From a bacterium BMS3Abin11 (lineage in GTDB: Bacteria; Pseudomonadota; Gammaproteobacteria; BMS3Bbin11), in the NCBI GenBank assembly GCA_002897635.1, contig BDTD01000007.1:16907-80906 (forward strand): 64,000 nt of DNA. Reading direction: 5' to 3'. The number at the start of each line of letters is the position of its first letter. The first letter of the stretch is position 1. A model generated the notes under the pieces. The model was given only the letters and a program-made list of their open reading frames with translations, was not told the DNA's origin and ran no database searches. The position numbers and the translations under genes are program-made. Of the stretch, positions 3,096-63,528 are shown in pieces.

Positions 3096-4388
3096 TTGAG
3101 TGATTTATCTATCTGGGTACTGTTTGTAATTCTGGTGGTACTCATTGCCTGCTCTGCTTTTTTTTCATCCTCTGAAACCGCAATGATGGCGCTTAACCGC
3201 TATCGTCTGAAAAATCTTGCTGACAAAGGACATCGCAGTGCGAAGCTGGCAAGTCGTCTGCTTGATCAGCCTGATCGACTGCTTGGTGTTATTCTGTTAG
3301 GTAATAACCTGGTCAATCTTTCTGCCGCTTCAATCAGCACTATTGCTGCCCTGCGTCTCTATGGTGAGACTGCTATTGCCGTATTTACATTCATTCTTAC
3401 CCTGATCGTGCTGGTGTTTGCCGAGGTTGCACCGAAAACGCTGGCAATGCGCCATCCTGAAAAAATTGCTTTTCCTGCGTCTTATGTACTCATCGTGTTG
3501 TTGTGGGTTTTATATCCCATCGTCTGGATCATCAATATTGTCGCTAACCGTTTTTTACGCCTGTTCAATATCAAGCCACAACACAACCGGGACGCATTGA
3601 ATAAGGACGAGCTGCGTACGGTGGTAAGCCAGGCGGAAAGCCTGATCCCCAAGAGTCACCATGACATGTTAATGAGCATCCTGGATCTGGAGCGAATCAC
3701 CGTAGAAGATATCATGGTTCCACGTAGTGCCATCGAAGGCATTGATCTTGATGATGAATGGGAAGAAATCCTGGAACAGCTGGCTACCAGCCATCATACC
3801 CGCCTGCCTGTCTTTAAGGGTAGCCTTGACAATGTGGTCGGTGTACTGCATTTACGACGGGTTATACATGCCGTACAGGCTAATGATCTTGATCGGGAAA
3901 AACTGGTAGAACTACTGCGGCCTGCCTACTTTGTGCCGGAAGATACACCGGTAATGCAACAACTACTAATCATGCAAAAAGAAAGGCGTCGCCTGGGTCT
4001 GGCGGTTGATGAGTATGGCGACCTGCAGGGCATGATTACTATGGATGAGATTCTTGAGGAAATCATTGGCGAATTTAATACTCAGGTTCCAGGCGACCTA
4101 CAGGATGTACATAAACAAAGTGATGGTTCCTACATGGTCAATGGCATGGCCTCAATTCGTGATCTAAACCGGAATTTGGGCTGGCAACTACCAGTTAACG
4201 GACCTAAAACACTGAACGGCCTTATTCTGGAAAAACTTGAAGACATTCCTCAAACCGGAACAACCATGCTGATAGACAATTATCCTGTTGAAGTAGTGCA
4301 GACCAAGGGTGCGGCAGTACGGATGGTGCGTATCTATCCACGTGTAGAATCTGTGGTCGATGAAACTGATGCAGACACGTCCTCATAA
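3096..4388 (+). CDS. CNNM/CorC-HlyC family membrane protein (DUF21-CBS pair-CorC_HlyC); probable divalent-cation efflux or hemolysin-like protein
   Basis: N-terminal 4-TM DUF21 region (LLGVILLGNNLVNL), a central CBS pair and a C-terminal transporter-associated domain. Confidence 0.85.
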   Translation: MSDLSIWVLFVILVVLIACSAFFSSSETAMMALNRYRLKNLADKGHRSAKLASRLLDQPDRLLGVILLGNNLVNLSAASISTIAALRLYGETAIAVFTFILTLIVLVFAEVAPKTLAMRHPEKIAFPASYVLIVLLWVLYPIVWIINIVANRFLRLFNIKPQHNRDALNKDELRTVVSQAESLIPKSHHDMLMSILDLERITVEDIMVPRSAIEGIDLDDEWEEILEQLATSHHTRLPVFKGSLDNVVGVLHLRRVIHAVQANDLDREKLVELLRPAYFVPEDTPVMQQLLIMQKERRRLGLAVDEYGDLQGMITMDEILEEIIGEFNTQVPGDLQDVHKQSDGSYMVNGMASIRDLNRNLGWQLPVNGPKTLNGLILEKLEDIPQTGTTMLIDNYPVEVVQTKGAAVRMVRIYPRVESVVDETDADTSS

Positions 4389-9999: not shown

Positions 10000-10049
10000 T
10001 GTTTCTCTTTTTGGTTCAGTGTTCAGTGTTCAGTAATTATACTTAATGC

Positions 10050-25023: not shown

Positions 25024-25188
25024 TGGGAACCTCTGATAAATTCTGGACGAAGTACATTAACGCCTAAAATATCCAGGTTTGAGGCGCAAATCGCACGTAA
25101 TAGCTAGCAATTGCGAAGGTTTTCAGCGAAAAAACTGGTTATTTTAGGCGTGAGATACGAGTTCACGAATTAATCAGAGGCTCCCTTA
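25024..25188. repeat. Family-1 MITE-like element, subfamily b (copy C), 165 bp; fills the purL-bamC spacer
   Basis: Terminal inverted repeats GGGAACCTCTGATAAATTCTGGA / GAATTAATCAGAGGCTCCC, core AATCGCACGTAATAGCTAGCAATTGCGAAGG, and inner inverted pair CGCCTAAAATA/TATTTTAGGCG. The right terminal inverted repeat ends in the bamC stop codon. Confidence 0.8.
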
Positions 25189-32553: not shown

Positions 32554-32571
32554 ATGGGCTTGAGTACCAGA

Positions 32572-32772
32572 CTAAGGACAAAGGACTAAGGACTAAAGAT
32601 AAAGGACAAAAGAAAAAACCGTCATTCCGGCATGACTCCAGCCGGAATCCATCTATTTAAAAAAACCTGGAAACTGGCCTAAGCCGGCATGGCATAAAAC
32701 TGGGTTTGTTTTCCTCCTTAGTCCTGAGTCTTTTGTCCTTTGTCTTTAGTCCTCAGTCCTTAGTCCTTTGTC
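32572..32772. repeat. Inverted pair of decamer tandem arrays (AGGACTAAAG-like x4-5 on each side) flanking a hairpin terminator
   Basis: Left array CTAAGGACAAAGGACTAAGGACTAAAGATAAAGGACAAAAG, right array its reverse complement. Central stem ATTCCGGC/GCCGGAAT followed on the minus strand by GGTTTTTTCTTTT. Lies between convergent genes. Confidence 0.7.
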
Positions 32773-33280
32773 TATTAGTCACTTCTGCCAAAACCCTCCG
32801 CCACAGCTCAAGTTTCTCATCAAAGCACATCGCTGCATAAGCTGGGCTGGTTGATGGCAATCTCTGGTAAAATTGACCGTATTGCTGAATCTCTTCCAGG
32901 CTAAGGACGTGTTTTTTATACAATCGTTCTGCCGCACTGCCATTAAAAAAGACCGCTTTAATCGATCTGTGAGCTGAAAATAAATGGACGAAATCATTCG
33001 CCTGCTCAGAAGTGGTCTCGATACTCGAATCCAGACTACCCACCCTTTTACACATTTTTAAAACATCCCAGATACCCAGGCCACAAGCTGTCAGCATAGT
33101 ACAGCGTTCATCATAGTTGCTGCCCCGCTCAATACCGAATAATCCTTCCATAATCGTCCAGAATACATTTCGAGGGTGCGCATAATATTGCTGCTTCTGT
33201 AGTGAAGCGACACCCGGCATGGAACCCAGTATCAGGATTCTACAGTTCTTTTTTGCTACCGGATCAAAGCTTTTTATCAT
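32753..33280 (-). CDS. DNA-deoxyinosine glycosylase (hypoxanthine-DNA glycosylase, UDG family 6)
   Basis: ILILGSMPGVASL ... YAHPRNVFW motifs of HDG-type UDG-fold proteins. Confidence 0.7.
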   Translation of the reverse strand: MIKSFDPVAKKNCRILILGSMPGVASLQKQQYYAHPRNVFWTIMEGLFGIERGSNYDERCTMLTACGLGIWDVLKMCKRVGSLDSSIETTSEQANDFVHLFSAHRSIKAVFFNGSAAERLYKKHVLSLEEIQQYGQFYQRLPSTSPAYAAMCFDEKLELWRRVLAEVTNRQRTKD

Positions 33281-37994: not shown

Positions 37995-38260
37995 AAGTTC
38001 CAAGATCCAGGTTCCAAGTTCCAAGTTCCAAGTAAAGGTCAAAAGCTATTAACCACAGAGGACACGGAGGTACACAGAGGAAAAAATTCTACAGATTTAA
38101 TAAACATACTAAGCATCAGCGCTATCGCTTAGTTTCAGCTCATATCTGTGGCCGAAATATATAGCAACTGAAAACCTCTGTGCACCTCCGTGTCCTCTGT
38201 GGTAAATGCTTTTAGTCTTTAGATTTTAGCTTGGAACTTGGAACCTGGATCTTGGAACTC
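37995..38260. repeat. Composite repeat: an octamer array (GTTCCAAG x4.5), then a family-2 BIME-like element (29 bp CACAGAGGA arms flanking 94 bp), then a reverse octamer array (CTTGGAAC x4)
   Basis: ACCACAGAGGACACGGAGGTACACAGAGG at 38052-38080, and its reverse complement CCTCTGTGCACCTCCGTGTCCTCTGTGGT at 38175-38203. Confidence 0.85.
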
Positions 38261-38279
38261 TATCTTTTTAACCCCATAT
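38251..38279 (+). promoter_or_regulatory. Candidate sigma-32 (RpoH) heat-shock promoter for clpB: -35 CTTGGAA, 14 bp spacer, -10 CCCCATAT
   Basis: Matches the sigma-32 consensus CTTGAAA-N13-15-CCCCATNT. Sits 37 bp upstream of the clpB ATG. The -35 box is the last unit of the octamer array. Confidence 0.5.
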
Positions 38280-40895: not shown

Positions 40896-40956
40896 CTAAC
40901 TATTGATAAAAAAGCTATTAACCGCGGAGGGCACAGTGGCCCCGAGAAGTAAAAAT

Positions 40957-43508: not shown

Positions 43509-43672
43509 TAAGGAACCTCTGATTAATTCTGGACGAAGTAGATTGCGACTAAAATATTCAGGTTTAAGGCGCAAATCGCACGTAATAGCTAGCTATTGCG
43601 AAGGTTTGCAACGAAAAAACTGGATATTTTAGGCGTGAGATACGAGTCCACGAATTGATCAGAGGTTCCCTA
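43509..43672. repeat. Family-1 MITE-like element, subfamily b (copy E), 164 bp
   Basis: AAGGAACCTCTGATTAATTCTGGACGAAG ... core AATCGCACGTAATAGCTAGCTATTGCGAAGG ... CGAATTGATCAGAGGTTCCC. The right terminal inverted repeat AGAGGT sits 6 nt before the ATG of the next gene and acts as its Shine-Dalgarno sequence. Confidence 0.8.
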
Positions 43673-46247: not shown

Positions 46248-46419
46248 ATGCCCTTTAAGGGCGTCTCTATTAATTCTGGATAGATCAGATTGTATTCCAA
46301 CTCGTTCATATCAAGGCAAGGATCGCACGTAATAGCTAGCTATTGCGAAGATTCTTAACGCAGAGAGGGACGAGTTGGGATGGAAGATGAATATTCATGG
46401 ATTAATAGAGGCGCCCTTT
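46248..46419. repeat. Family-1 MITE-like element, subfamily a (copy F), 172 bp
   Basis: AAGGGCGTCTCTATTAATTCTGGATAG ... CATATCAAGGCAAGGATCGCACGTAATAGCTAGCTATTGCGAAGATTCTTAACGCAGAGAG ... CATGGATTAATAGAGGCGCCCTT. The right terminal inverted repeat encodes the last 8 codons and the stop of rluD. The element's internal ATG opens a 28-codon ORF that overlaps the pgeF start. Confidence 0.85.
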
Positions 46420-48936: not shown

Positions 48937-50611
48937 TCGTTAACACGTGCCGCATATAAGCTGAAGTAATGGGATAGCGCCGATCTCTGCCGAAAGCTCT
49001 TTTTGTTATTCGCACTCCGGGCGCAGCCTGTTTGCGTTTATATTCATTCAGATCTACCAGGTAAAGAACCTTTCGCACCGTGTTGCGATCAAAGCCTTTC
49101 GCCACGATTTCTTCAAGTCCACAATCATCTTCTATATACATTTCAAGAATAGCATCAAGAATTTCATATACCGGTAGTGAATCTTCATCCTTCTGATCAT
49201 CAGCCAGTTCAGCACTCGGCGGCCGGTCTATCACGCGCTGCGGGATTACCTGCGACTGACTATTACGCCAGTTTGCCAGCTCATAGACCAGCATCTTCGG
49301 TACATCTTTGATCACTGCATACCCCCCCGCCATGTCACCATAAAGGGTGGCATAACCAACTGCCATTTCACTTTTATTGCCGGTGGTCAACACAATGCGA
49401 CCCTGTTTGTTGGATATGGCCATCAATATAATTCCTCGACAGCGAGCCTGAATGTTCTCTTCGGTGGTATCGACTGCTGCTGCGGCAAAAGTCTCCTTAA
49501 GACCGTCAAGAAATGCCATAAACATCGGTTCGATAGTGATGGTCTGGTAATGCACACCGAGTACCCCGGCCTGCTCCCTGGCATCCTCAATACTCATGGA
49601 CTGGGTATAGCGCGAAGGCATAAGTACAGCCTTAACATTCTCCGCGCCTAGTGCATCACTGGCAATGACCAGTGTCAGTGCGGAATCGACACCGCCCGAC
49701 AGTCCGATTACCGCCCCCTTGAAGCCATTTTTTAATGCATAGTCACGCACACCAAGCACAAGTGCCCGGTATACATTTTCAATTCGGGGTAAATCAGGAG
49801 CAAGTACTGACGGCTCTGGCTGTAAACCTTTATCAGCGCAGGTAATTTCAATCAACGAAAGATCTTCTAAAAACACCGGTGCCTGCAGAACACGTGCACC
49901 GCTGGCATCAACAACAAAAGAACCACCATCAAAAACCAGTTCATCCTGACCGCCAACCATATTGACATAGACCACAGGCACAGAATTTAATCGTGCCTGC
50001 TCTGCAACCACTGTTATACGTTCAGCCCGCTTGTCCATATGATATGGTGACGCGTTGAGATTAAGAATAAGCTTCGCACCGGCCTGAACTGCCTGCCTGG
50101 CAGGGCCATCCTGCCAGATGTCCTCACAAATGGTGACACCGATCTTTCCTGCATATGTTTCCACTATGCAAGGGCTGCCACCCGCAGTGAAATACCGTTT
50201 TTCATCGAAAACGCCGAAATTAGGCAGGCTCTGTTTGTCATAACGCGCTATCTGCACACCATCTTTAATTATTACGGCAGAGTTATACAAACAGTCTTCT
50301 TCCTGCATCGGACAACCGATAATAGCCGTGATGCCATGCACATGTCTGCAAAGCTCATCCAGCACTTTACGGGTATCAGCGATAAAGCCATGACGCAACA
50401 ATAGATCTTCAGGTGGATAGCCCGTCAGGTTAAGCTCAGGGAAAAGAATAATATCTGCACCCAGTTCATCCCTGGCCCGCACCACCCACTGCAGTATTTT
50501 GTCAGCATTCCCCTGCAGATCTCCAACCAGACAGTCATGCTGAGCGAGGGCAATTTTCAAGGACGCCCCGGTTGATACTGGATGATCAGATTGTGATTCA
50601 AAACCAGTCAT
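48923..50611 (-). CDS. nadE: Glutamine-dependent NAD+ synthetase (nitrilase-like domain plus NAD synthase domain)
   Basis: N-terminal CN-hydrolase domain and C-terminal SGGVDS PP-loop. The first roughly 17 codons of the track ORF lie inside repeat copy G. The true start may be the TTG at 50559, giving (M)KIALAQ. Confidence 0.9.
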   Translation of the reverse strand: MTGFESQSDHPVSTGASLKIALAQHDCLVGDLQGNADKILQWVVRARDELGADIILFPELNLTGYPPEDLLLRHGFIADTRKVLDELCRHVHGITAIIGCPMQEEDCLYNSAVIIKDGVQIARYDKQSLPNFGVFDEKRYFTAGGSPCIVETYAGKIGVTICEDIWQDGPARQAVQAGAKLILNLNASPYHMDKRAERITVVAEQARLNSVPVVYVNMVGGQDELVFDGGSFVVDASGARVLQAPVFLEDLSLIEITCADKGLQPEPSVLAPDLPRIENVYRALVLGVRDYALKNGFKGAVIGLSGGVDSALTLVIASDALGAENVKAVLMPSRYTQSMSIEDAREQAGVLGVHYQTITIEPMFMAFLDGLKETFAAAAVDTTEENIQARCRGIILMAISNKQGRIVLTTGNKSEMAVGYATLYGDMAGGYAVIKDVPKMLVYELANWRNSQSQVIPQRVIDRPPSAELADDQKDEDSLPVYEILDAILEMYIEDDCGLEEIVAKGFDRNTVRKVLYLVDLNEYKRKQAAPGVRITKRAFGRDRRYPITSAYMRHVLTNDTH

Positions 50612-50773
50612 ATCAAGACAAGGATCGCACGGCCGCTCATTGACATCCTGTCACTGCGGCACTTGTACATCCCTGTACGTCGTAATAGCTGGCTATTGCG
50701 AAGATTCTTAACGCAGAGATGGCTGGTTTTGAATTCAAGATGATTATTCATGTATTAATCGGGGCGCCCTTCA
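50558..50773. repeat. Family-1 MITE-like element, subfamily a (copy G), with a degenerate left terminal inverted repeat and a roughly 50 bp insertion inside the core
   Basis: CTGGATGATCAGATTGTGATTCAAAACCAGTCATATCAAGACAAGGATCGCACG-[insertion]-TCGTAATAGCTGGCTATTGCGAAGATTCTTAACGCAGAGATGG ... CATGTATTAATCGGGGCGCCCTT. Confidence 0.75.
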
Positions 50774-50880
50774 AGTTTGTTTCATCATTTATCAGTGATT
50801 TAAAATAACAATCAGATGATACACTGCTGGTCAGCTTTTCTCAGCAGAGAAGATAGGGGTGAATTTTATTTTAGGATCAA

Positions 50881-51012
50881 AAGCTATACACCACAGAGGT
50901 CACAGAGGAAAGAAAAATATTTGGCTGCAAACCATGCACAACAACCTTAATCCTCTTTCTGCTTCATACTGGAAGTGATTCATGCATTCCAATTTTAACC
51001 TCTGTGTCCTTT
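50881..51012. repeat. Family-2 BIME-like element, shorter arms (ACCACAGAGGTCACAGAGG ... CCTCTGTGTCC), interior about 90 bp
   Basis: Preceded by the AAAAGCTATACACC leader shared with the copy at 38041. Directly follows family-1 copy G. Confidence 0.7.
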
Positions 51013-51266
51013 ATGGCGAAAAATGATGTTAAAAAATGCAAACTGAAGTCCACAATTCTCTGCTCGATATTTCACCTGACGAATGGGACACGTTGAACCA
51101 TGATAACAACCCTTCCATCAGTTATGCCTTTCTCAGTACCCTCGAGGAATCAGCGAGTACAGGTGGGAGAAAAGCGCATGTTACTCATTATCAACAAATA
51201 TTAAATAAATATAGCCCTTTTCGAAATGACACCAAAAATGACTAACCAGTTGATATACTGTTACTC

Positions 51267-51959: not shown

Positions 51960-51970
51960 TTGCCAATATA

Positions 51971-52134
51971 AAGGGCACCTCTATTAATTCATGGATATTC
52001 ATCTCACATCCAAAATCGTCCATCTCTGCGTTAAGAATCTTCGCAATAGCTGGCTATTACGTGCGATCCTTGCCTTGATATGAACGATTTTGGATGCAAT
52101 CTAATCTATCCATAATTAATAGAGGTACCCTTAA
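51971..52134. repeat. Family-1 MITE-like element, subfamily a (copy H), reverse orientation; fills the aat-bpt spacer
   Basis: AAGGGCACCTCTATTAATTCATGG ... TCTCTGCGTTAAGAATCTTCGCAATAGCTGGCTATTACGTGCGATCCTTGCCTTGATATG ... CCATAATTAATAGAGGTACCCTT. Confidence 0.85.
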
Positions 52135-52848: not shown

Positions 52849-53091
52849 GGATGAAAGGGGAAAGGGGAAAGGGGAAAGTTCCAAGTTCCAAGATCCAAGC
52901 AAATTCAAAGCCTCATATCACTGAGGTACATGGTTTTGACTTGGAACTTGGAACTTGGAACTTGGATCTTGGAACTTGGAACTTGGATCTTGGAACCTGG
53001 AACCTGGAACCTGGAACCTGGAACTTGGAACTTGGATCTTGGAACTTGGATCTTGGAACTACAGCACCCCGTGTCCTCTGTGGTTAAAATG
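52849..53091. repeat. Tandem repeat block: (GAAAGGGG)x3, (GTTCCAAG)x3, a 40 bp spacer, (CTTGGAAC-like octamer) x about 15, then half of a family-2 terminal inverted repeat (CCCCGTGTCCTCTGTGG)
   Basis: Period-8 array at 52940-53060 with CTTGGAAC/CTTGGATC/CTGGAACC variants. All overlapping six-frame ORFs are low-complexity LGTWNLDLGTWNL-type artefacts. Confidence 0.9.
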
Positions 53092-55178: not shown

Positions 55179-55377
55179 TACTAAAGTCCTTACGAGCTTC
55201 TTGTTCAGATAGATTATCTGGTAAATAAACCGGCTACTGCCGGAAAGGCGCGAATTTATACCAGATTTCAGCCCATTTGAACACCCCGAATCAGTAATTA
55301 TGACAGGAAAAGTTAATAAATACCCTGTAAATCTAGAATCCCAAATAAATCAAAAACCTTTTTAGTTTTTTTTATAC

Positions 55378-56052: not shown

Positions 56053-56096
56053 CCTTGTCTCCATTATTTTCAACTGTGAAAGTCAAAAGACTTTTT

Positions 56097-56243
56097 ACCA
56101 CAGAGGACACGGAGGACACAGAGGTTTTTTATTATTGTGTACCCGTTGCTTCGTTAAATTTGGTGTCAGACGAGGACTTCGATGGTTGTTTATTACTTCT
56201 AGAAGATTTTCCTTTCCTCTGTGTCCTCTGTGTCCTCTGTGGT
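56097..56243. repeat. Family-2 BIME-like element in the radC / coaBC divergent intergenic region
   Basis: ACCACAGAGGACACGGAGGACACAGAGG at 56097-56124 and CCTCTGTGTCCTCTGTGTCCTCTGTGGT at about 56216-56243, bracketing 90 bp. Flanking leader and trailer motifs (GTCAAAAG..., ...TTTAGATTTTGATC) are shared with the copy at 38035-38230. Confidence 0.85.
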
Positions 56244-56314
56244 GAAAACCTTTAGATTTTGATCTTTCACTCATTTTATCGAAGTACAACCCCTTTCTGC
56301 GCTAAAATAACGCC

Positions 56315-62348: not shown

Positions 62349-63419
62349 TCAGGAACCTAGCCACGCAAGAATGTTTTCAGTAATCTGTCTTTCCATTTCT
62401 GCAAGGTTATTTATACTACCAGTAACCACACCACCGGATGCCTGCACCTTCCCGTTCTGCTCAAAAATTCCCCATGTCAGTCTTACATGCTCTGCATTTT
62501 GCTGGAAACTGAAAACAAGCCTGAAGGCAGAACTACTGCCATACTTTTTGTCAGCATTTGTGTCGGGTTTTGATGCACCCTTAACAGGAAGAAGATTTAC
62601 ACCAGCTATCGAATTTACGCTCGTTTGTATTCGCCTGGCCATGTCGCTGAGTTCTTTGCCGAATCCACCACTGGAAAAATCCCTGATCTCAGTAACTTCA
62701 ATATACCGAGTCTCAATTTCAGGCTTACTACTTGCGAACATTAAAAACAGTATTGTGGCTACCACCAACAATGGAATTTCAACAACAGGAGATATAATAG
62801 TTACATTTAAGTTGTCCAGATATTCGGTCTTCAGATACTCAAGTAAAAATCCCTGACGCCTGAGGAAAGCCTGTTTCTCTTCATATAGATAAAATACTGG
62901 CACTGTATCGGATAAAAAGCCCAGATCATGCCTGCCCAGTGGATAGGCATATACTGGAAAGTCCGGAGTAATTTCATCAATAATGGTTTTGCTGACGCAT
63001 AGCCCATCTGCACGACCTAAAGATTGAAGACAGGTAGCAGCTGCCAGTGAAAGCTGTTGCTGGCTTTCTTTTTCTCCCTGTTTACTGGAGGAGTGAATAC
63101 CGATTCGCGCAGTTATGCCTGGTTCTTCGGATGAAAGATTCCATGCATTGAGGGCTTCCTGTATGGCAAAACCAGCCTTTACTGCAGATTTGCAGGTTCT
63201 GAAGCTTGCTGAAATCGCATCACCGGTAAATTCAATCCCAAAACCAACTGCTTTTTCGATGATGGGTACCAGTATGGACTGGAAGGTTTCATAAAGATCA
63301 ACCCCTTTACGCTGATCTTTCTGCATGATCAGCGAAGAGCCGACTATATCAGCTACCATATAGGTTAAGGGCATCTCTATTAGTTCTGGATAGTTCAGGT
63401 TTGATTCAAAAGTTGTCAT
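62349..63419 (-). CDS. Membrane-anchored class III nucleotidyl cyclase-like protein, subunit A: metal-binding Asp pair present, Asn/Arg motif absent
   Basis: VADIVGSSLI (first metal Asp), EFTGDAISASF (second metal Asp) and ARIGIHSS. The region homologous to GxxVNxASRL reads GLCVSKTII, so Asn and Arg are lost. One TM segment and a C-terminal domain paralogous to subunit B. The first 20 codons of the track ORF derive from repeat copy I; the likely true start is the Met at 63359 (MVADIVGSS...). Confidence 0.6.
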   Translation of the reverse strand: MTTFESNLNYPELIEMPLTYMVADIVGSSLIMQKDQRKGVDLYETFQSILVPIIEKAVGFGIEFTGDAISASFRTCKSAVKAGFAIQEALNAWNLSSEEPGITARIGIHSSSKQGEKESQQQLSLAAATCLQSLGRADGLCVSKTIIDEITPDFPVYAYPLGRHDLGFLSDTVPVFYLYEEKQAFLRRQGFLLEYLKTEYLDNLNVTIISPVVEIPLLVVATILFLMFASSKPEIETRYIEVTEIRDFSSGGFGKELSDMARRIQTSVNSIAGVNLLPVKGASKPDTNADKKYGSSSAFRLVFSFQQNAEHVRLTWGIFEQNGKVQASGGVVTGSINNLAEMERQITENILAWLGS

Positions 63420-63528
63420 ATCAAGGCAAGGATCGCACGTAATAGCTAGTTATTGCGAAGATTCTTAACGCAGAGATGGCAGCTTTTGGATTGAACATGA
63501 GTATTCATGAATTAATAGAGGTGCCCTT
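63366..63528. repeat. Family-1 MITE-like element, subfamily a (copy I), 163 bp; the best-preserved copy, fills the parC-cyclase spacer
   Basis: AAGGGCATCTCTATTAGTTCTGGATAG ... CATATCAAGGCAAGGATCGCACGTAATAGCTAGTTATTGCGAAGATTCTTAACGCAGAGATGG ... CATGAATTAATAGAGGTGCCCTT. Confidence 0.9.

Follow-up and report, generated by a model that had tools for sequence, protein, structure and literature searches.

Inverted arms of tandem nonamers around exchangeable interiors in a gammaproteobacterial genome point to a small mobile repeat

The 64,000-nt stretch of bacterium BMS3Abin11 DNA analyzed here (assembly GCA_002897635.1, contig BDTD01000007.1, positions 16,907 to 80,906; hereafter, the window) harbors three elements, named c1, c2, and c3, in which two inverted arms made of tandem 9-mers enclose an interior. 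These elements are probably, though by no means certainly, copies of a small, non-coding, hairpin-forming mobile repeat that resembles both miniature inverted-repeat transposable elements (MITEs) and hairpin-forming doublets (REPINs) of repetitive extragenic palindromic sequences (REPs), that is non-autonomous, and that is mobilized by a trans-acting factor. The unit runs from ACC... to ...GGT, with two inverted arms around a free interior. In a sister genome, arms and interior have been copied together to new places. Copies sit centrally in A/T-rich imperfect palindromes (CAAAAGC ... GCTTTTAG), hence the nested palindromes seen around them. Arms differ in length by one or more complete 9-mers, a new interior can take the place of an old one between arms and flanks that are kept, and arms decay to solo arms and relics.

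Results

Reading of the region, together with pattern and repeat searches, placed the elements at 38052-38203 (c1), 50890-51018 (c2), and 56097-56243 (c3), and all the copies reported by the initial annotation were found at, or a few bases from, where it had put them. Its proposal of a distinct family with conserved inverted arms of tandem 9-mers was borne out as well: the two-unit arm pattern matches the window 9 times, against 0.01 expected, and the 8-nt core CACAGAGG alone 13 times, against 1.7 expected. The elements measure 129 to 152 nt, with arms of 19 to 29 nt and interiors that are non-coding and A/T rich. Each arm starts with the head TT(A/C)ACCACAGAGG and is a polar array in which the head is followed by one to three further CACAGAGG cores that decay inward; the arms of the window hold two to three cores with a period of 9 to 10 nt.

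All arms and boxes are given on the + strand. The left arm of c1, ACCACAGAGGACACGGAGGTACACAGAGG (38052-38080), reads ACCACAGAGG-ACACGGAGG-T-ACACAGAGG, three cores with the head outermost, and its right arm (38175-38203) is the reverse complement of the left one, both carrying an extra T/A between units 2 and 3. This compensated 1-nt insertion is absent from the ortholog at locus L260. The interior between them (38081-38174; 94 nt, 33% GC) is unrelated to the other interiors and to the one at the orthologous site in L260. In c2, the left arm has two units only (ACCACAGAGGTCACAGAGG, 50890-50908), the interior has 90 nt (50909-50998), and the right arm is decayed (CCTCTGTGTCCTTTATGGCG, 50999-51018). 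In c3, two three-unit arms (56097-56124 and 56216-56243) flank an interior of 91 nt (56125-56215). The three interiors could not be aligned with each other in either orientation (|z| ≤ 3.2), as had been claimed for them.

The window belongs to an uncultured marine gammaproteobacterium, and CoaBC and ClpB proteins identical to its own are listed under the name bacterium BMS3Bbin11. Comparison with relatives, which are labelled Arenicellales, showed how the interior behaves. The element between radC and coaBC (c3) is present in the window, in L249, and in L080, and CoaBC identities of 92%, 86%, and 87% give a tree in which the window groups with L249 and L080 is the outgroup. The left arm is identical in all three (27/27 aligned), and the right arms carry at most two changes each; between the window and L080, the arms agree at 27/27 and 25/27 positions. 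The interiors of L249 and L080 are homologous (67/97 identical, z of about 9). The window interior, in contrast, aligns to neither of them (z = 3.2 and 1.9), and nothing was found in reverse. Since L249 and the outgroup L080 share an interior and the window differs, the c3 interior of the window is the derived one: it was replaced while arms and flanks were kept. A similar situation was found upstream of clpB, where L260 has an element with the same boxes and the same heptamer arms around it as c1, but with an interior of the L249 type. At both sites, relatives thus keep arms and flanks and differ in the interior, in good agreement with the earlier proposal that conserved ends enclose a variable cargo. 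A profile built from interiors of the L249 type had no match at the three elements of the window, even at an E value of 100, and the window interiors had no match among the 120 metagenome loci listed, which stem mainly from soil Acidobacteria and not from close relatives. Within Acidobacterial ortholog groups, arms were likewise constant and interiors variable or invaded.

Presence of the element itself also varies between relatives. At the radC/coaBC site, the more distant L250 to L252 hold a decayed solo left arm joined straight to the right flank, and L253 to L255 hold no arm. Upstream of clpB, L256 to L258 lack a 9-mer element although their ClpB is 99% identical, and L261 has neither the 9-mer element nor the heptamer structure. 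Downstream of clpB, L260 and L261 have a full element where the window keeps a relic (40910-40949), made up of the box AAAAGCTATTA and a decayed solo left arm (ACCGCGGAGGGCACAGTGG...) just past the clpB stop codon. A second remnant in the window is a solo right arm, ACCCCGTGTCCTCTGTGGT (53066-53084), which corresponds to the half-site of the initial annotation and lies directly 3' of a 17-unit ACTTGGA heptamer array. Unit number differs at the strain level too, as the right arm of c3 is shorter by exactly one 9-mer, that is, two units instead of three, in strain variant L126.

Evidence for movement came from the sister genome GCA_036986095.1, which includes L249 and L260. In addition to its radC/coaBC element, L249 harbors another copy at a distance of about 800 bp, which is oriented the other way and has a 94% identical interior. 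This copy fills the rpmB-radC spacer, which is unoccupied in the window, L121, and L250; the empty site reads CAAAAACC-TTTTTAG in all three, corresponding to 55347-55373 (+ strand, AAATCAAAAACCTTTTTAGTTTTTTTT) in the window. The L260 copy has the same type of interior (z = 5.6 to 7.5), so that the sister genome holds three copies with one interior (z = 5.6 to 19). Because one of them lies in a spacer that is empty in the window, we conclude that arms and interior move together. The initial annotation had called the family "not MITE-like" because its copies share no interior, a statement that does not survive this comparison. Interiors also recur within genomes in L269, L326, and the Ga0256829 contigs.

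The same copies allowed us to delimit the mobile unit. Short boxes flank the arms in the window: GGTCAAAAGCTATTA (38037-38051) and AAATGCTTTTAGTCTTTAGATTTTAG (38204-38229) around c1, GATCAAAAGCTATAC (50875-50889) before c2, and AGTCAAAAGACTTTTT (56081-56096) and GAAAACCTTTAGATTTTGATC (56244-56264) around c3. They had been described as conserved leader and trailer boxes. The leader is indeed found in c1, c2, c3, and the relic, whereas the trailer TTTAGATTTT is found in c1 and c3 only. However, the two L249 elements are 94% identical and yet have flank boxes that disagree at several positions, and a similar box is already present at the empty rpmB-radC site. The boxes are therefore target or flanking sequence and no part of the element, and the mobile unit extends from ACC to GGT. 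Left and right flanks show a tendency toward inverted complementarity (CAAAAGC...GCTTTT); in c1, the left box pairs with GCTTTTAG of the right flank and is read as a target palindrome or flank. This suggests insertion into the centers of pre-existing palindromes, which would explain the nesting. One such nesting was missed by the initial annotation: c1 lies within an outer inverted repeat of heptamers, a separate palindrome with a left arm (AAGTTCC)5.6 at 37995-38033 and a right arm (CTTGGAA)4.3 at 38230-38259, both on the + strand. No excess of direct repeats indicative of a target-site duplication was found in 35 elements at offsets of 0 to 6, and none was seen in the comparison of the filled and empty sites.

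Folding of whole elements was strong for c1 folded as DNA with its outer arms (z = -16.4) and for c3 folded as RNA (z = -8.6), while the fold of c2 was insignificant (z = -1.2). Four arms folded singly gave only -0.1 to -1.0 kcal/mol (z, -1.2 to +0.1). As the arms of c1 and c3 lack one base, or nearly so in the left arm of c1, self-pairing of a single arm is almost impossible. The missing base is T in the left arm of c3 and A in the right arms of c3 and c1; the left arm of c1 has a single T. We also observed that the arms contain no stop codon in any frame on either strand, since T or A is missing from each strand (almost missing in the left arm of c1). The arm period being exactly three codons, the arms can thus sit in a coding sequence without truncating it, and about 20% of the foreign copies fall within ORF calls, which in the foreign loci are crude.

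To see how far the arm is distributed, one-per-species genomes were scanned with the 19-mer ACCACAGAGGWCACRGAGG. It was found at more than 120 loci of these species-representative genomes in about 16 phyla, against about 17 matches expected by chance in our own uniform-model estimate; the arms are thus confined neither to the window nor to its genome. Acidobacteriota were the most numerous among the genome matches listed. Other phyla with matches include Planctomycetota, Bacteroidota, Cyanobacteriota, Gemmatimonadota, Desulfobacterota, Chloroflexota, Nitrospirota, Bacillota, and Pseudomonadota, and isolates carrying the arm include Bacteroides, Nostoc, Cronbergia, Geomonas, and Gemmatirosa. 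Among the plasmids and chromids of PLSDB, the arm occurs in Gemmatirosa (27 and 21 places), Bacteroides, Scytonema, and Pseudoalteromonas. It was further found in more than 120 IMG/VR viral contigs and more than 120 metagenome loci, and had no match in 5,426 Escherichia coli genomes. The consensus is TT(A/C)ACCACAGAGG-A-CAC(A/G)GAGG-N-CACAGAG, with an A-rich stretch (often CAAAAGC) 5 to 8 nt upstream.

About half of the listed genome matches have an inverted partner at most 400 nt away and form heads-out pairs with a total length of 46 to 342 nt (median, 100 nt), the smallest being plain hairpins with loops of 6 to 12 nt. Heads-in pairs (…CCTCTGTGGTTAA-loop-TTAACCACAGAGG…) were found in L016, L022, L032, L046, L056, L061, and L112, and solo arms are common among the foreign loci. 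Interiors often contain other hairpins with tandem-repeat arms, and Gemmatirosa copies are nested within GCCGCAGAGG arms. A gagcctgccctgagcgaagtcgaaggg repeat lies inside 9-mer elements of Acidobacteria (among the interiors of L367, L281, and L314), and L251 has a GC-rich hairpin with 27-nt arms (tgtgggaggcgcgccctcgcggcgaa…) at about 400-500. Palindrome centers, which are also occupied by other lineage-specific palindromic repeats, may be general insertion hot spots.

The arms are mostly intergenic. Counted by arm, 101 lie in co-directional, 18 in convergent, and 13 in divergent gene spacers. Paired elements start a median of 24 nt past the upstream stop codon and end 44 nt ahead of the next start codon. 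Solo arms are equally distributed with respect to transcription (22 sense, 21 antisense) and occur in 20 convergent versus 5 divergent spacers. The initial annotation had placed each copy in a promoter-bearing spacer. The three copies of the window do lie in the MFS/clpB (c1), NAD-synthase/aat (c2), and radC/coaBC (c3) spacers, but the association with promoter spacers does not extend to other loci, where co-directional and convergent spacers prevail. A scan for sigma-70 promoters and terminators around c1 gave results at shuffle level only.

Solo arms were also observed in one phage lineage (at least 39 loci sharing proteins among the IMG/VR loci L127 to L246, e.g., L135, L148, L158, L166, L180, and L185). 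They lie 2 to 3 codons after ATGA-overlapped start codons in a frame reading T-T-E-D-T-E, and this frame is open for at least 60 codons in 60% of the cases, compared to 17 to 21% for the other frames. The number of units differs between homologous genes.

No description of a CACAGAGG-armed element was found in Rfam or in the searchable literature. At the gathering score, Rfam gave no match in the 64-kb window and nothing relevant at an E value of ≤10; the best sub-threshold match over c1 was a plant microRNA model (26 bits versus a threshold of 200). Exact arm strings had a single chance match, in a zebrafish paper, among 8 million full texts. We also considered DnaA boxes (TTATCCACA versus TTAACCACA), CsrA sites, sigma-54 promoters, parS, and 16S rRNA complementarity beyond the Shine-Dalgarno (SD) core; none of these fitted, and all were dropped.

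The window contains further repeats, several of which are built from heptamers. A sigma-32-type clpB promoter at 38251-38279 consists of CTTGGAA, 14 nt, and CCCCATAT, 37 nt before the ATG, and its -35 box is at the same time the last unit of the right heptamer arm around c1. In L261, a single CTTGGAA without arrays is found at this place, while L256 to L258 carry (CTTGAAA)3, the exact sigma-32 -35 consensus, mirrored upstream as (GTTTCAA)3; every heptamer unit of both arms differs by one base from the window. The heptamer arms look as if the promoter box had seeded an array on the spot, of which a mirror image was then made. A compound block at 52853-53060, composed of (GAAAGGG)3.7, (AAGTTCC)3.4, a 40-nt center, and (ACTTGGA)17.4, constitutes a second palindrome with heptamer arms; its right arm has expanded strongly, and the solo 9-mer arm comes immediately after it. 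At 32561-32781, two 53-nt arms of tandem heptamers (GGACTAA/GACAAAG units) that are 87% complementary form a third palindrome, and short heptamer arrays occur in other spacers at 10014, 14373, 31159, and 36639. This tandem-heptamer habit is otherwise described for cyanobacteria and Beggiatoaceae. Finally, repeats of about 165 nt with the ends AAGGGCRCCTCTATTAAT… and …ATTAATAGAGGYGCCCTT, which form a family of their own, are found at 46255-46419, 50559-50771, 51969-52134, and 63365-63528, with partial copies at 25061-25186 and 43509-43672. This is presumably the first repeat family of the initial annotation, and in L260 a copy lies inside the interior of the 9-mer element downstream of clpB (about 3830-4000).

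Discussion

We propose a mobile repeat whose arms would be the recognition sites of a trans-acting enzyme encoded outside the window. Our leading guess for this enzyme is a HUH/Y1 transposase targeting hairpins or single strands, of the type represented by REP-associated tyrosine transposases (RAYTs) or by Y1 transposases flanked by terminal inverted repeats (TIRs), because no target duplication is made. The interior would be passenger DNA, swapped either by re-insertion at a preferred site or by conversion with the arms as homology, and the two arms of a copy might be kept matched by intra-strand, hairpin-templated correction. The occurrence of the same arm in about 16 phyla and in phages implies either horizontal spread or recognition by something very conserved.

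Several observations weigh against mobility by such an enzyme. Pfam searches of the 49 window ORFs turned up neither a transposase or recombinase nor a RAYT or reverse transcriptase. The arms in about 240 bacterial and metagenome loci have no recurrent protein family as a neighbor apart from phage-lineage clusters and orthologous housekeeping neighborhoods, and no heads-out pair 0.6 to 6 kb apart encloses a transposase in the roughly 8 kb around each match in the bacterial loci. A target-site duplication was not detected, and a single clean pair of filled and empty sites is available, in which "empty" could also mean excision. Arms at orthologous sites are nearly unchanged while their flanks are about 70 to 80% identical, which fits constraint by the host equally well. 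The two arms of a copy agree more often than their marginals predict in 62 register-safe elements (flank position -1, 35 versus 23.4 expected; position 15, 48 versus 36.3; position 20, 33 versus 21.4), but this covariation is confounded by lineage; the 1-nt insertion common to both arms of c1 is a cleaner case. Finally, a non-autonomous element without a visible partner would hardly be expected to have a motif of at least 19 nt in common across about 16 phyla.

An alternative is a function for the host. The CACAGAGG arrays could be binding sites, as DNA or RNA, for a very conserved cellular component or regulator; the hairpins would then serve mRNA stabilization or processing, termination, or nucleoid organization and be kept by selection, with mobility being incidental. 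The near-invariance of the arms at orthologous sites, where interiors and flanks diverge, and their conservation across phyla are in agreement with this, as are the SD-like AGAGGA/GGAGGA on the purine strand every 9 nt and the phage lineage that carries an arm a few codons after its start codons, in frame. A mild preference for sites just past stop codons, and for convergent over divergent spacers, is shared with REPs, whose organization has been described (PMC3733652). Yet relatives whose ClpB is 99% identical can have or lack the element, copies such as c2, the relic, and the solo arms of L250 to L252 have decayed freely, and solo arms show no strand bias, all of which weakens this explanation. 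In addition, no Rfam family matches, the neighboring genes are functionally unrelated, and the motif is absent from the 5,426 E. coli genomes, so that no universal machinery needs it. We regard a host function as unlikely, yet as the likeliest of the alternatives. In-place slippage and template switching, without any transfer between loci, is the apparent origin of the outer heptamer arms: the right heptamer arm resembles an amplified clpB -35 box, which L261 holds as a single CTTGGAA, and one and the same base is changed from the window to L256 in every heptamer unit of either arm. The copy number of the 9-mers also varies by slippage. However, the same 19- to 29-nt arm with the same head recurs in about 16 phyla, and near-identical whole elements lie at different loci of one genome. 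Independent local origin is thus contradicted for the 9-mer arms and viable for the heptamer arms only, and as an account of the family we find it barely credible.

The initial annotation had favored REP doublets (bacterial interspersed mosaic elements [BIMEs]) or a pair of recombination sites. REP, BIME, and REPIN sequences have been described together with the TIR repeats of Y1 transposases (RAYTs and TIRYTs), the TIR-flanked Y1 transposases (TIRYTs) being reported especially in Acidobacteria (Di Nocera et al. 2013, PMC3733652), the phylum with the most arm matches among those listed. A genuine REP/BIME, kept up by a RAYT whose gene lies in another part of the genome, would account for short intergenic singletons, for heads-out and heads-in inverted dimers that fold into long hairpins, for conserved or variable spacers of 20 to 100 bp (PMC3733652), for the absence of a target duplication, and for persistence at orthologous sites. 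Indeed, the organization of our elements appears closest to REP/REPIN and the TIR repeats of Y1 transposases. The family nevertheless departs from REP/BIME in its defining unit structure and in its tag. In its arms, an 8-nt core that is not palindromic is repeated in tandem, where REP units are stem-loops of 20 to 40 nt, a single arm does not fold on itself (about 0 kcal/mol, z of about 0), the consensus has no GTAG/CGTC tag but TT(A/C)ACC heads and decaying tails, and the same sequence is common to about 16 phyla, whereas REP sequences are lineage specific. No Y1 or RAYT gene was found among the 49 window ORFs or near any arm in the loci surveyed. We consider REP/BIME membership improbable. 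Still less credit can be given to an inverton or cassette system, in which crossover at the arms would invert or exchange the segment between them; this is very improbable. Inverted conserved ends around a variable center of about 90 bp, upstream of genes and with a hairpin fold, recall invertons and integron attC sites; interiors do differ at orthologous sites, and c1 and c2 have one A-run/T-run polarity and c3 the opposite one. However, c3 has the same interior orientation in the six assemblies listed from the same population, and no replaced interior is an inverted form of its counterpart (reverse z ≤ 3.4, no profile matches). The window ORFs include no recombinase, and heads-in pairs, solo arms, and loops of 6 to 12 nt do not fit. 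Compared to integron attC sites, there is no integrase, no cassette array, and no R/L core site, the ends being ACCACAGAGG instead of GTTRRRY, and copies are dispersed singly in housekeeping spacers.

The mobile repeat that we favor shares its other features with MITEs, of which Correia, RUP, ERIC, and Nezha are bacterial examples and whose superfamilies are defined by their TIRs. Like them, the elements are about 50 to 300 bp long, have no coding capacity, end in TIRs, are present or absent at orthologous sites, share interiors within a genome, nest, and place different interiors behind the same ends. Unlike MITEs, their TIRs are internally repetitive with a 9-nt period, they form heads-in pairs and abundant solo arms, and their ends are conserved far more widely than those of any known bacterial MITE family. 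MITE membership fails on the target duplication, and no cognate insertion sequence with these ends was found in the roughly 8 kb around each match in bacterial loci; shared interiors occur in the sister genome and not among the window copies. Small dispersed repeats (SDRs) and heptamer repeats of cyanobacteria, the SDRs being reported as confined to cyanobacteria, were reportedly described by Elhai et al. in 2008. TAACTGA heptamer repeats are known from Beggiatoaceae, cyanobacteria, and Bacteroidetes (MacGregor 2015, PMC4679880). They have in common with our family that very short repeats are embedded in tandem heptamer arrays, that insertions are nested, and that one short tandem unit is found in distant phyla without a known vector. 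In contrast to the 9-mer arms, however, the TAACTGA repeats are direct, strand biased, and located just upstream of start codons, and neither they nor the SDRs are known to have a CACAGAGG core.

Tandem-nonamer arms, conservation across phyla, and replacement of the cargo at fixed sites are the unusual traits of this family. To our knowledge, known bacterial miniature repeats, such as REPs and MITEs, are species or genus specific, and the mobilizing enzyme, when known, co-evolves with its repeat. We tentatively raise the possibility that nonamer arrays of CACAGAGGA with TTAACC at their head are what an undescribed, sequence-specific system recognizes, one that is shared by much of the bacterial domain and by some phages. 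This could be a new broad-host-range mobilization enzyme targeting hairpins or palindromes, or a conserved host factor exploited by the elements. If so, they would represent the first miniature bacterial repeat superfamily with ends of 19 to 29 nt conserved across phyla and with a freely exchangeable cargo. A single enzyme family would imply an unusually promiscuous, hairpin-centered DNA insertion with defined ends and no footprint, of interest for genome plasticity and possibly as a tool, and a host factor would imply a new, widespread regulatory or structural DNA/RNA signal that has been overlooked so far. The elements adjoin core genes and promoters (clpB, coaBC, and aat), where they give rise to strain-level length polymorphism, and they will break or confuse metagenome assemblies.

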